From Candidatus Hadarchaeum sp. (lineage in GTDB: Archaea; Hadarchaeota; Hadarchaeia; Hadarchaeales; Hadarchaeaceae): a DNA stretch of 11,488 bases. The notes under the pieces were generated by a model. It saw only the letters and a program-made list of their open reading frames with translations. It had not been told where the DNA came from and ran no database searches. Position numbers and translations under genes: made by a program. Positions 110 through 251 of the stretch are shown here, piece after piece. Location: the NCBI RefSeq assembly GCF_049969415.1, contig NZ_JBMFOX010000031.1, positions 1 to 11,488 on the forward strand. Direction: 5' to 3'. Each line of letters begins with the position of its first letter. Position 1 is the first letter of the stretch.

Positions 110-148
110 TGGCGCCGGGGAGAGGACTCGAACCTCTGACCGCTCGGT

Positions 149-207
149 TGCCGTATCCAGACGTGTCGTCAGTTTAATTGAGGTTCGTTCTTCATCCACG
201 TCCAGTT
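149..207 (-). other. tRNA intron 2 (59 nt), canonical position 37/38
   Basis: BHB motif: central helix CUGU/ACGG, bulges UA|A and CA|A, closed by the anticodon stem on one side and the intron stem CUGGACGUG/CACGUCUGG on the other. Confidence 0.92.
157..205 (-). ncRNA. Putative intron-encoded box C/D-like sRNA (single K-turn)
   Basis: Inside the intron 2 stem: box C-like AUGAAGA (189-195), a 16-nt spacer ACGAACCUCAAUUAAA (173-188) and a perfect box D CUGA (169-172), in the order and position expected for a C/D K-turn. Confidence 0.6.
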
Positions 208-222
208 TAACAGCCGAGCACT

Positions 223-251
223 TTAGGCGAAGCAGCTCACGCTTAACTTCT
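223..251 (-). other. tRNA intron 1 (29 nt), non-canonical position 22/23
   Basis: The central 4-bp helix AGGU/GCCU is flanked by 3-nt bulges AG|A and AA|A. The intron hairpin is GAAGU/GCUUC plus AGC-GUGA-GCU (GNRA loop). The exon-side helix is weak, so this is a relaxed BHL-type motif. Sequence alone allows 22/23, 23/24 or 24/25; bulge geometry favours 22/23. Confidence 0.85.

Follow-up and report, generated by a model that had tools for sequence, protein, structure and literature searches.

The tRNA-Asn gene and its introns

The window, i.e. the whole stretch of 11,488 nucleotides that was analysed, carries a tRNA-Asn(GUU) gene on its reverse strand, at positions 110-273. The Rfam tRNA model (RF00005) matched it from position 273 to 113 with 39.5 bits (E 2.3e-07) and with insertions of 30 and 61 positions; the CCA end is encoded at 110-112. 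No second tRNA-Asn was detected in the assembly. Nothing was found at this locus by ARAGORN with default settings or by Rfam at the gathering threshold, and aragorn -i placed a gene at 110-273 with the wrong anticodon, as a miscalled tRNA-Val. Since default finders miss the sole gene and intron options miscall it, annotations of this phylum may list tRNA-Asn as absent.

Two introns lie within the gene. The larger one, 59 nt long (149-207, reverse strand), was read from the sequence as a canonical 37/38 bulge-helix-bulge (BHB) intron, and the RNAalifold structure agrees with this reading. The central helix of 4 bp is formed by C32-U35 (window 213-210) and ACGG of the intron (154-151), and 96.2% of cells are paired across 52 distinct orthologs. 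It is flanked by two bulges of 3 nt each, read as U-A-A and C-A-A. A 4-bp helix with two 3-nt bulges that hold the predicted splice sites corresponds to the archaeal BHB motif at 37/38. The second intron, of about 29 nt (221-249, reverse strand), interrupts the D-stem between positions 24 and 25. Its boundary was set, to within 1 nt, by comparison with orthologs devoid of it, as some orthologs have one and others none, and it appears in the Rfam alignment as the insertion of 30.

The comparison set consisted of 60 orthologous tRNA-Asn genes from 65 species of one class, assigned to the Hadarchaeota from record titles; 54 introns were aligned, and 53 were scored for boxes. The intron was present in 60 of the 60 tRNA-Asn genes seen in the class, with no intronless copy. 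Two open reading frames overlap it, 78-293 on the forward strand and 29-199 on the reverse strand. We judged them to be mechanical only, because the length of a linker inside the intron differs among orthologs by non-multiples of 3. A contig of one relative carries the unspliced tRNA-Asn gene, an observation that is uninformative on expression, splicing or circularisation.

Intron stem, kink-turn motif and box D-like element

The intron stem, with its 5′ strand at 197-205 and its 3′ strand at 157-165 (both on the reverse strand), serves as the C-stem of a kink-turn (K-turn) and, in the BHB, as the outer helix. In the window this stem has 9 bp, 7 Watson-Crick and 2 G-U. Double compensatory changes were found in 7 of the 8 scored pairs, with 94.3% paired. 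In a pairing test 96.5% of cells were paired, and none of 500 shuffles matched either that percentage or the covariation score. RNAalifold independently gave the same structure as its consensus fold, with columns 25-58 unpaired.

Next to the stem, at 189-196, come a bulge G-A-U (196-194) and a box C-like AUGAAGA (195-189). Three elements are invariant in 54 of the 54 aligned introns: A-U of the bulge, the GA that follows (193-192) and the GA that abuts the stem on the 3′ side. The 3-nt bulge reads GAU in 46 of the 53 scored introns and AAU in 7, hence R-A-U in all 53. Box C is AUGAAGA, one mismatch away from RUGAUGA, in 48 of 53, the canonical AUGAUGA in 2, and a variant that retains UGA in the remaining three. 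Its middle is free to vary (AGA, UGA, CAU, AAG, GGG) while GA is retained, as expected for a K-turn. A canonical helix, a 3-nt bulge and tandem GA/GA make up the K-turn signature, which predicts an L7Ae site at the level of sequence; a box C that follows a 3-nt bulge beside the terminal stem is also the arrangement of archaeal C/D sRNAs. A strict automated count found the K-turn in 53 of the 60 introns. Four more were recognised by eye, being mis-registered or having a weaker closing helix, and the three introns of a family that we call f5 lack the motif. We conclude that a box C/D-type K-turn conserved over the whole class is supported by the ortholog comparison.

The original prediction had described a 59-nt intron with a 9-bp stem, G-AUGAAGA, a 16-nt spacer and CUGA, all of which are present exactly as claimed, and had assigned C/D K-turn geometry to it. 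The stem, the bulge and the GA/GA pairs are indeed conserved, but box D had been misassigned: the CUGA (169-172) lies 3 nt upstream, with CGA between it and the 3′ stem strand. In a K-turn, the GA of box D has to be immediately next to the stem, and the box D-like tetramer in that place is the ACGA at 166-169 (reverse strand); its GA (167-166) provides the invariant partner in the K-turn. In the 53 scored introns this tetramer is ACGA (42), UCGA (4), UUGA (3), AUGA (2), CGGA (1) or AGGA (1), and two further orthologs, L026 and L072, have a CUGA abutting the stem. A CUGA at the position chosen originally occurs in 1 of 53, which is the window itself. ACGA leads to A-C and G-A oppositions in most orthologs, so that stem II is mostly non-canonical and the recruitment of Nop5 is made uncertain.

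Between the conserved elements lies a variable, purine-rich linker (170-179, reverse strand), where the first two positions (M, A) are the only conserved ones. No co-evolution of this linker with its own pre-tRNA was found, and no conserved GA that could serve as box D′ was present in it across orthologs. The distance between boxes C and D is 16-22 nt among orthologs, which bears out the original view that no C′/D′ pair would fit. Without a D′ box or room for C′/D′, the standard N+5 rule does not apply to this intron. No guide of 10-12 nt directly upstream of D or D′ with an rRNA or tRNA target at N+5 was found in it.

This bears directly on the target first proposed, i.e. that the intron is a single-guide C/D RNA in which UCAAUUAAA, placed before CUGA, directs methylation of the 16S A equivalent to E. 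coli A959. Both the 9-mer and the CUGA are present in the window, and GGUUUAAUUGG is found in the 16S of one relative (G038). However, most of that guide falls in the hypervariable linker, the 9-mer occurs in 1 of 60 introns, and its CUGA neither abuts the stem nor is kept among relatives. The 16S gene of the organism (C19:13989-15466, 99% identical to that of a congener) reads GCGGUUCAAUCGGAUUC at the proposed site, i.e. GGUUCAAUCGG, leaving two internal mismatches in the duplex; the congener G001 also has GGUUCAAUCGG, and three other relatives have GGUUCAAUUGG. The sequence UUUAAUUG, on which the original prediction had itself staked the proposal, is not in the 16S of the host. Because of the GGUUCAAUCGG reading, the rRNA target is refuted, and we give this version of a guide practically no credit.

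The organism does encode the proteins of a C/D machinery: fibrillarin (317.5 bits) and Nop5 (246.6 bits), which are adjacent, and L7Ae (106.5 bits); the genes lie at C12:4727-5005 and C2:29419-30803. Two other tRNA introns of the same genome look like guides of a conventional kind. The tRNA-Met(CAU) intron holds a guide, CUGA, 6 nt and GAUGAUG, and a 10-bp duplex over the exon-intron junction would place C34 at N+5. In the tRNA-Trp intron, CUGA is followed after 6 nt by GAUGAUGA; for the upstream guide, C39 stands at N+5, and for the downstream guide, C34 faces spacer position 8. Both introns have canonical D′/C′ boxes, and the targets of their predicted guides, each in the pre-tRNA that carries the intron, conform to the N+5 rule. 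Three strict regular-expression searches of the genome for canonical C/D sRNAs gave 0 matches, and of the 47 matches to a looser expression, none showed convincing internal boxes on inspection. A genome scan for K-turn hairpins returned 27, against 4-11 in shuffles.

Complementarity between the intron and the T arm

What the original prediction overlooked is the conserved part of the intron, a sequence beside box C that reads as antisense to the T arm of the tRNA hosting it. This element, CGAACCUC (180-187, reverse strand; consensus CGARCCUC), is present in 59 of the 60 orthologous introns, and the consensus fold leaves it single-stranded. Its complementarity to G50-G57, a segment on the 5′ side of the T stem and in the T loop, is perfect. 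This segment is encoded in the 3′ exon as GAGGUUCG (129-136, reverse strand) and is invariant in all orthologs. Among the stable RNAs of the genome, the 8-mer GAGGUUCG occurs in tRNA-Asn and nowhere else. When the core was shuffled, a Watson-Crick match of at least 8 nt to the mature tRNA was obtained in 944 of 200,000 cases (p ∼0.005). The sole variable position of the element faces U54, and as it is either A or G, pairing with U54 is kept both ways. The antisense follows the GA of the K-turn at a distance of 4 nt, without exception among orthologs, which suggests that K-turn and antisense form a single unit and not two independent modules.

In trans, the duplex between the antisense and the T arm is predicted at −15.1 kcal/mol. 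It comprises 8 bp, with a ninth pair in introns where a C faces G49. A criterion of 9 contiguous pairs has been used for guide duplexes (PMC6009581), and an 8-bp duplex falls below it, which counts against a guide. Forcing the duplex of intron and T arm in RNAfold was uninformative: it is a pseudoknot, the intron stem is broken, and nested folding cannot evaluate it. Covariation between intron and T arm is impossible, since both partners are invariant. We had considered the invariance of the T stem as a sign of constraint and rejected it, as positions 50-53 of tRNA-Asp, used as a control, are equally invariant (30 of 30 orthologs). The position just after the duplex, scored against N49, gave A with A49 in 39 introns, C with G49 in 14 (plus 2 f5 introns by eye) and A with G49 in 4; the pair is not kept, and the covariation is ambiguous.

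Two natural variants separate the K-turn from the antisense. In family f5 (three species of one genus), the intron is 42 nt long and has no 3′ GA, hence no K-turn; it retains a 19-nt core, displayed in a plain hairpin loop. Retention of the core after loss of the K-turn argues that the core is valuable in its own right. Conversely, one species (G035) has retained the K-turn with an antisense core decayed to about 5 pairs.

The G035 intron is what would be expected if the K-turn were a structural, L7Ae-binding clamp, stabilising the hairpin and the splicing motif at high temperature or marking the pre-tRNA, the T-arm match being incidental and the antisense sequence being conserved for contact with a protein instead of pairing. 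The shared use of the intron stem by K-turn and BHB fits with such a clamp, as does the absence of a D′ box and of a C′/D′ motif, and the T-arm match is beyond the reach of a covariation test. Yet a chance match of 8 nt is rare in the shuffles, the variable position keeps U54 paired, family f5 has kept its core with no K-turn left to clamp, and other introns of this genome hold bona fide cis guides. We regard the clamp as a serious possibility, against which we nevertheless lean.

Family f5 can also be read the other way, with the antisense acting independently of any protein: the loop would sequester the 5′ strand of the T stem and delay the cloverleaf until splicing, with the K-turn as a mere presenter. 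Besides the plain hairpin loop of f5, the gene order speaks for such a timer, as the element is transcribed ahead of the T arm, and so does the stability predicted for the trans duplex. A mere presenter, however, needs neither the K-turn nucleotides nor the spacing, and these are invariant in the 54 aligned introns outside f5. On balance, we find it improbable.

Possible activities of the intron

The account that we prefer, tentatively and at slightly less than even confidence, is that the tRNA-Asn intron is a conserved functional RNA, a C/D-like element with a single K-turn and an antisense anchored on box C, which would act on its own T arm. L7Ae would bind the K-turn, either before splicing or once the intron has been excised, possibly joined by Nop5-fibrillarin, and the antisense would pair with the T arm of tRNA-Asn or its precursor. 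The complex would then either 2′-O-methylate a ribose of the T arm, or keep the T arm open until splicing, as a folding or timing chaperone; either output is conceivable. If methylation took place, a ruler starting from box C would point to A51, which faces spacer position 8. Should the conserved M-A that follows the duplex be a vestigial D′, U54 would be the target instead. To our knowledge, no tRNA modification occurs at A51. For U54, no guide has ever been reported, according to a review (PMC7912444).

Two statements in the literature were counted in favour of an element that acts on the T arm: a C/D guide has been predicted on C50 of the T stem, in tRNA-Gly of Sulfolobus (PMC7668247), and intron removal is described as a late step in Methanopyrus (PMC3695527). 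A canonical intron in tRNA-Asn is on record for Methanopyrus kandleri (PMC5829648). The more specific proposal, a minimal RNA-guided modification particle with one K-turn and a guide on box C only, 2′-O-methylating its own T arm at A51 or U54, is in our opinion rather unlikely. If true, it would be a new class, devoid of D′ and C′/D′ and carried phylum-wide by the tRNA-Asn intron; an active particle made of a single K-turn and a box-C-anchored antisense would challenge the need for juxtaposed C/D and C′/D′ motifs. We know of no enzyme or guide for ribose methylation of the T arm, a modification for which this intron is a concrete candidate.

The half-mer box C/D RNAs of structural studies have one K-turn and one guide strand, as here. 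They are anchored on box D, at the 3′ end of the guide, whereas the tRNA-Asn antisense is anchored on box C, at its 5′ end. A close counterpart is the guide that euryarchaeal tRNA-Trp introns carry (Haloferax volcanii, Pyrococcus sR50), in which a 37/38 intron likewise has K-turn-type boxes and an antisense to its host tRNA; such an intron occurs in the present genome too. It has D′/C′ boxes and two 12-nt guides, with targets in the anticodon arm (C34 and position 39) at N+5; in the tRNA-Asn intron, by contrast, there is a single K-turn, the boxes are 16-22 nt apart, D′ is absent, and a box-C-anchored antisense would face the T arm. The guides for C34 of elongator tRNA-Met (sR-tMet) likewise serve ribose methylation of a tRNA, and the one found here is intron-borne with a single K-loop. 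It differs from the tRNA-Asn intron by its canonical CUGA/GAUGAUG, by a guide directly upstream of CUGA, and by its 10-bp duplex with an N+5 target. A 2014 review called the tRNA-Trp intron a unique example, among archaeal tRNA introns, of a functional unit modifying its own tRNA (PMC4090602). The present data would add tRNA-Asn, and tRNA-Met in passing, to the archaeal introns with a function of their own, in a little-studied uncultured phylum.

Pairing of a C/D RNA with the T arm has a precedent, as Renalier et al. 2005 reportedly described a C/D sRNP responsible for Cm56 in Pyrobaculum aerophilum. According to the review, this is a stand-alone sRNA with two guides, which pairs with the T arm or T loop of many tRNAs in an organism without aTrm56 (PMC7912444). 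A guide of this type replacing the protein enzyme could be imagined here too, C56 being within the duplex. Unlike the Pyrobaculum RNA, however, the tRNA-Asn element is intronic and specific to one tRNA, and C56 does not stand at N+5: it faces spacer position 3, far from any C/D ruler position. Moreover, this genome has a gene for aTrm56 (168.4 bits), and so have 38 of the 65 genomes of the class, with no link to the intron, genera without the enzyme having the same one. We consider a Cm56 guide hardly tenable.

The element could also act elsewhere, as a stable small RNA made of the excised and possibly circular intron, on an rRNA or mRNA in trans. Archaeal introns and C/D RNAs do circularise (PMC7994747), and a site near the tip of helix 44 in the 16S, GAGGCUCGUUC, is predicted to pair at −16.6 kcal/mol. 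We rejected this site as a target, as 4 of the 5 relatives examined differ there. The best other rRNA site is no better than −12.7 kcal/mol, and none of the other stable RNAs of the genome contains the 8-mer target. A role in trans is therefore quite doubtful.

An element acting on its own T arm would offer a possible reason for the retention of the intron in all 60 genes. A 16-mer of the core, with at most 1 mismatch, was found in 57 of the 65 genomes of the class, and the reversed control in 6. Extra matches obtained with a looser pattern were considered as paralogous or stand-alone cores and dismissed: they fall in apparent coding sequence, with no tRNA or box context, and look like chance. 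In the single genome of the sister class, no match was obtained at E 1e-6 or better. A scan of the whole collection for the core gave 70 matches, with a pattern that demanded CGARCC plus GGUUCGA and is thus blind to analogous introns with another T arm; judged from record titles and by reading, 14 were bacterial and not in tRNA genes, and 56 were tRNA-Asn genes of the phylum. The 56 include records labelled Methanobacteriota and Hodarchaeaceae, in which the intron is identical to that of the genomes G005 and G009.

An intron conserved in tRNA-Asn genes across the class

The tRNA-Asn(GUU) gene, whose sequence was read by eye, occupies positions 273-110 of the window on the minus strand, with an encoded CCA and a T-run behind the gene. 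It was not detected by ARAGORN with default settings (0 genes in the window), nor by Rfam at the gathering threshold (0 matches). With permissive filters, the Rfam tRNA model matched positions 113-273 (39.5 bits, E 2.3e-07) in an alignment that requires two insertions, of 30 and 61 positions, and ARAGORN run with introns found the locus, which it called a tRNA-Val with a 67-nt intron. Set against its orthologs, the gene shows two introns. The canonical intron separates A37 from A38 (207..149, 59 nt, minus strand), at exactly the coordinates originally predicted; the second, of ~29 nt, lies at D-stem position 24/25 (~249..221, minus strand) and is absent from some orthologs. The canonical intron has a regular bulge-helix-bulge, in which C32-U35 are paired with ACGG near the intron 3′ end, the bulges are U-A-A and C-A-A, and the outer helix is the 9-bp stem already recognised in the original prediction. 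No further tRNA-Asn gene was found in the assembly (1.47 Mb, 138 contigs, 54% G+C, 95% completeness), of which the window is contig C31.

The class is made up of a single order with five families, represented by 65 species genomes (66 genomes for the phylum). In a BLAST search with the locus, 40 of the 41 genomes sampled matched, that of the window included, and the intron was covered at 72-91% identity. The 16-mer AUGAAGARCGAACCUC, with at most one mismatch, was present in 57 of the 65 class genomes, nearly always once, and the reversed 16-mer, used as a control, in 6. The 57 introns extracted (54 of 57-64 nt, three of 42 nt) were later completed by three divergent ones (genomes G006, G035 and G059), bringing the total to 60 tRNA-Asn genes, all of which carry the intron; no tRNA-Asn was detected in the other five class genomes (completeness 75-88%). 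The introns of two loci, L380 and L374, have the same reading as their counterparts in G009 and G005, so that the public titles of these loci, Hodarchaeaceae and Methanobacteriota, disagree with the class placement.

The 54 long introns were aligned, leaving out the three of 42 nt. Invariant in all 54 are the last stem pair G-C, the A-U of the bulge, the G-A that follows and then the G-A of the box C-like heptamer, a C-G-A, a C-C-U-C, one A two positions further, and a G-A abutting the 3′ strand of the stem. A hand-written structure was 96.5% paired, with double-sided changes in 10 of 17 pairs (7 of the 8 scored pairs in the intron stem); the orthologs being related by descent, these counts overstate independence, but compensatory changes still recur across different families. 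None of 500 shuffles reached the observed paired percentage or covariation score, and slid controls all dropped to 24-42% paired. RNAalifold returned exactly the same three helices, the region between the stem strands being wholly unpaired. We conclude that the intron is very probably a real RNA element under selection.

Further introns make the tRNA-Asn genes of the class a patchwork, with up to three extra sites, in the D-arm (24/25), in the 5′ acceptor region and in the T loop after G59. The T-loop intron (23-30 nt, 12 of 58 scored genes) leaves positions 50-57 intact. Increased tRNA gene disruption in Hadesarchaea, and a canonical intron in Methanopyrus tRNA-Asn, are mentioned in an earlier study (PMC5829648).

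A kink-turn signature and the position of box D

From 5′ to 3′, the consensus reads: stem, 3-nt bulge, G-A, 3 variable nucleotides, one purine, CGARCCUC, M-A, 8-11 variable purine-rich nucleotides (the linker), N-N-G-A, stem. Kink-turns (K-turns) are defined by a stem, a 3-nt bulge and tandem G-A oppositions. At the sequence level, the intron pattern is that of a box C/D-type K-turn, and the RNA probably folds as one. A strict regular-expression script found the motif in 53 of the 60 introns. By eye, two of the seven misses were registration errors (loci L029 and L060) and two had weaker closing helices (L026 and L072); the remaining three, the 42-nt introns of family f5, are truly without the 3′ GA.

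The bulge is GAU in 46 of the 53 scored introns and AAU in 7. For box C, 48 introns have AUGAAGA and 2 the textbook AUGAUGA, with AUGACAU, AUGAAAG or AUGAGGG in single species: its GA never changes and the three nucleotides behind it do, a pattern to be expected if it is the tandem G-A pairs that count. Box D is better placed at the tetranucleotide that touches the stem (ACGA 42, UCGA 4, UUGA 3, AUGA 2, CGGA 1, AGGA 1); it is CUGA in L026 and L072, both dropped by the strict script for their imperfect closing pairs. The CUGA first proposed as box D lies 3 nt off the stem and is there in 1 of the 53, the window itself. The comparative evidence for a minimal C/D-type K-turn RNA in the intron, the general idea of the original prediction, is strong; the box D of that prediction had been mis-registered.

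Among known systems, the box C/D RNA of the euryarchaeal tRNA-Trp intron comes closest; a 2014 review describes it as a unique example of a modification unit for the own tRNA being encoded in an archaeal tRNA intron (PMC4090602; cf. PMC7994747). The tRNA-Asn element shares with it an intronic location, a K-turn and an antisense to the host tRNA. It departs from canonical C/D sRNAs in lacking C′/D′, a guide upstream of box D and a target at the rule position. In a search that covered mainly freely available main texts of the archaeal tRNA-intron, C/D-sRNA, Cm56 and Hadesarchaea literature, we found no published account of such an element.

From a 16S target to a possible T-arm target

The original prediction made the intron a guide for the 16S nucleotide equivalent to E. 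coli A959. The proposed guide, UCAAUUAAA, spans the last two nucleotides of the conserved core and the variable linker, and was found in 1 of the 60 introns. The host's own rRNA operon was placed on contig C19, because the C19 16S is 99% identical to that of a congener (86-90% to three other genera examined; a match in two pieces, 80-86%, to a fifth relative). At the target site this 16S reads GCGGUUCAAUCGGAUUC, as does the congener's, and UUUAAUUG is absent from both rRNAs; three other relatives have GGUUCAAUUGG and one GGUUUAAUUGG. The proposed duplex with the own 16S would contain two internal mismatches. Since guide and box are unconserved and the own 16S lacks the site, observations that the prediction itself had named as decisive, an action in trans on rRNA is refuted. 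A single D guide for 16S was rejected, given an unconserved linker and a different site in the host. Nor did the linker show any sign of co-evolution with its own pre-tRNA or flanks when mean duplex energies were compared (−6.87 kcal/mol in its own context vs −6.77 with the other 53, ranks spread evenly).

Within the core, CGAACCUC is complementary at every position to GAGGUUCG, which makes up nucleotides 50-57 of the own tRNA-Asn (window 136-129), i.e. the 5′ strand of four T-stem pairs plus U54-G57 of the T loop. By complementarity, the conserved business end of the intron is an antisense to the T arm of its own tRNA. Only one core position varies, with A in most introns and G in families f2 and f5 and in part of f1; it lies opposite U54, with which both nucleotides can pair. 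Among 200,000 shuffled 19-nt cores, 944 (~0.5%) had a Watson-Crick match of at least 8 nt to the 73-nt mature tRNA. The T-arm 8-mer occurs 57 times in the genome, both strands counted, and, the intron antisense strand aside, twice in stable RNA genes: in the own T arm and at the variable-loop/T-stem junction of a tRNA-Ala on C69, a contig taken as contamination because, of all SSU genes, the one it carries has the lowest score with the archaeal model (431.8 bits). No conserved antisense target emerged from scans of 16S, 23S and 5S: the top-scoring 16S site falls in the variable helix 44 tip and is not the same in 4 of the 5 relatives, and the best 23S site had −12.7 kcal/mol.

Antisense and T arm do not covary, since both partners are invariant. 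The T stem of tRNA-Asn is not unusually frozen: 30 tRNA-Asp orthologs show no change at positions 50-53 either, their one variable pair being 49-65. Directly after the duplex, a C is seen only in combination with G49 (14 scored introns, plus two f5 introns by eye), and an A stands with A49 in 39 introns and with G49 in 4; neither a C with A49 nor any U occurs. A ninth pair would explain this, and shared ancestry would do so equally well.

K-turn and antisense come apart in two lineages. In family f5 (three species of one genus), the 42-nt intron has a 5-bp stem closing a loop with AUGAAGARCGAGCCUCCAU and no GA on the 3′ side. In G035, the stem, bulge and both GA are kept and the core is altered, leaving ~5 pairs to the T arm. 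That the intron acts through T-arm pairing seems to us an evenly balanced proposition. The observations are equally compatible with a non-catalytic role, in which the element would keep the T arm from closing up to the moment of intron removal; this would be a better fit to family f5, and intron removal is given as a late step in Methanopyrus in PMC3695527.

Possible output, and guide introns of the same genome

We infer the function of the element from sequence comparison. L7Ae would bind the K-turn of the pre-tRNA-Asn or of the excised intron, and the antisense, beginning at the second nucleotide after box C, would pair with G57 to G50, the purine-rich linker leading back to box D. If Nop5-fibrillarin then assembled as on a normal D′ guide, it would methylate the nucleotide opposite spacer position 8, A51. 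Alternatively, M-A may be a vestigial D′ directly after the duplex, which would place U54 at N+5. A review mentions a possible Um54 in Sulfolobus and states that guides for U54 have not been reported (PMC7912444), and a predicted C/D target at C50 of a Sulfolobus tRNA-Gly is cited in PMC7668247. Overall, that the element directs methylation at all is a tentative and rather doubtful proposal.

Guiding of Cm56, another nucleotide within the duplex, is unlikely: C56 would be opposite spacer position 3, the protein methyltransferase aTrm56 (PF01994) is encoded in the source genome and in 38 of the 65 class genomes, and the intron is no different in genera that lack the enzyme, two of which retain pseudogene remnants. 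By genus, aTrm56 was found in 0 of 6 genomes of g9 and 0 of 2 of g11, two short fragments with in-frame stops were seen among the 14 of g8, and the gene is intact in most genera outside these three. Example sites in genera without an intact gene are G051:C11:465-602 and G056:C11:18839-18976.

The source genome encodes fibrillarin and Nop5 side by side, as well as L7Ae, and two of its other tRNA introns, in tRNA-Met(CAU) and tRNA-Trp, are clear guides. C/D guides follow the N+5 rule and have a 12-nt spacer. Machinery genes and sister introns together raise the prior for a cis-guide in tRNA-Asn. The tRNA-Met or Ile2 (CAU) gene (C1:23232-23353, plus strand, locus L327; called tRNA-Ser(cga) by ARAGORN) has a 46-nt intron with the order guide, CUGA, 6 nt, GAUGAUG. 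A 10-bp duplex (−15.0 kcal/mol) links the 11 nt that precede CUGA to A31-A37 and the first three intron nucleotides; this guide across the exon-intron junction would place C34 at N+5. This intron appears to be the intron-borne counterpart of the sR-tMet type guide.

The gene at C18:4350-4505 (minus strand, locus L326 51-206) is called tRNA-Pro(tgg) by ARAGORN with introns, and is a tRNA-Trp because its anticodon loop reads CU-CCA-G, anticodon CCA. An additional intron lies in the D-arm region of this gene, and the long 37/38 intron contains CUGA, 6 nt and GAUGAUGA. With pairings made by eye, the upstream guide, across the intron-exon junction, has C39 at N+5; in the 12 nt after GAUGAUGA, positions 2-11 pair with G31-G37 and three intron nucleotides, C34 being opposite spacer position 8. 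Of 30 loci fetched from the class, all but one keep this arrangement (29). The box D slot after the 12-nt spacer is GUGC/GUGU with a ~5-nt insertion in most species, the source genome included, and GUGA in few species only, a hint that what is conserved as a ruler in this intron is the spacing from box C′.

Strict pattern searches of the source genome, which were simple and crude, gave no canonical stand-alone C/D sRNA. A scan for hairpins of the form stem, NRU, GA...GA, stem returned 27 vs 4-11 in shuffles, e.g. at C5:26844 (11-bp stem) and C15:17337 (9-bp stem).

The assembly includes rRNA genes from other organisms. Contigs C41, C62, C68, C69, C73, C74, C80, C84, C85, C87 and C136 hold several additional SSU/LSU rRNA genes, whole or in fragments, and tRNA-Ile/tRNA-Ala pairs of bacterial style, all of them foreign to the window's organism; over most of its length, the C41 16S has only ~67-74% identity to relatives. 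The own 23S gene (C19:15670-20342) is 4673 nt long vs the 2987 positions of the model, and probably contains ~1.7 kb of insertions or introns.
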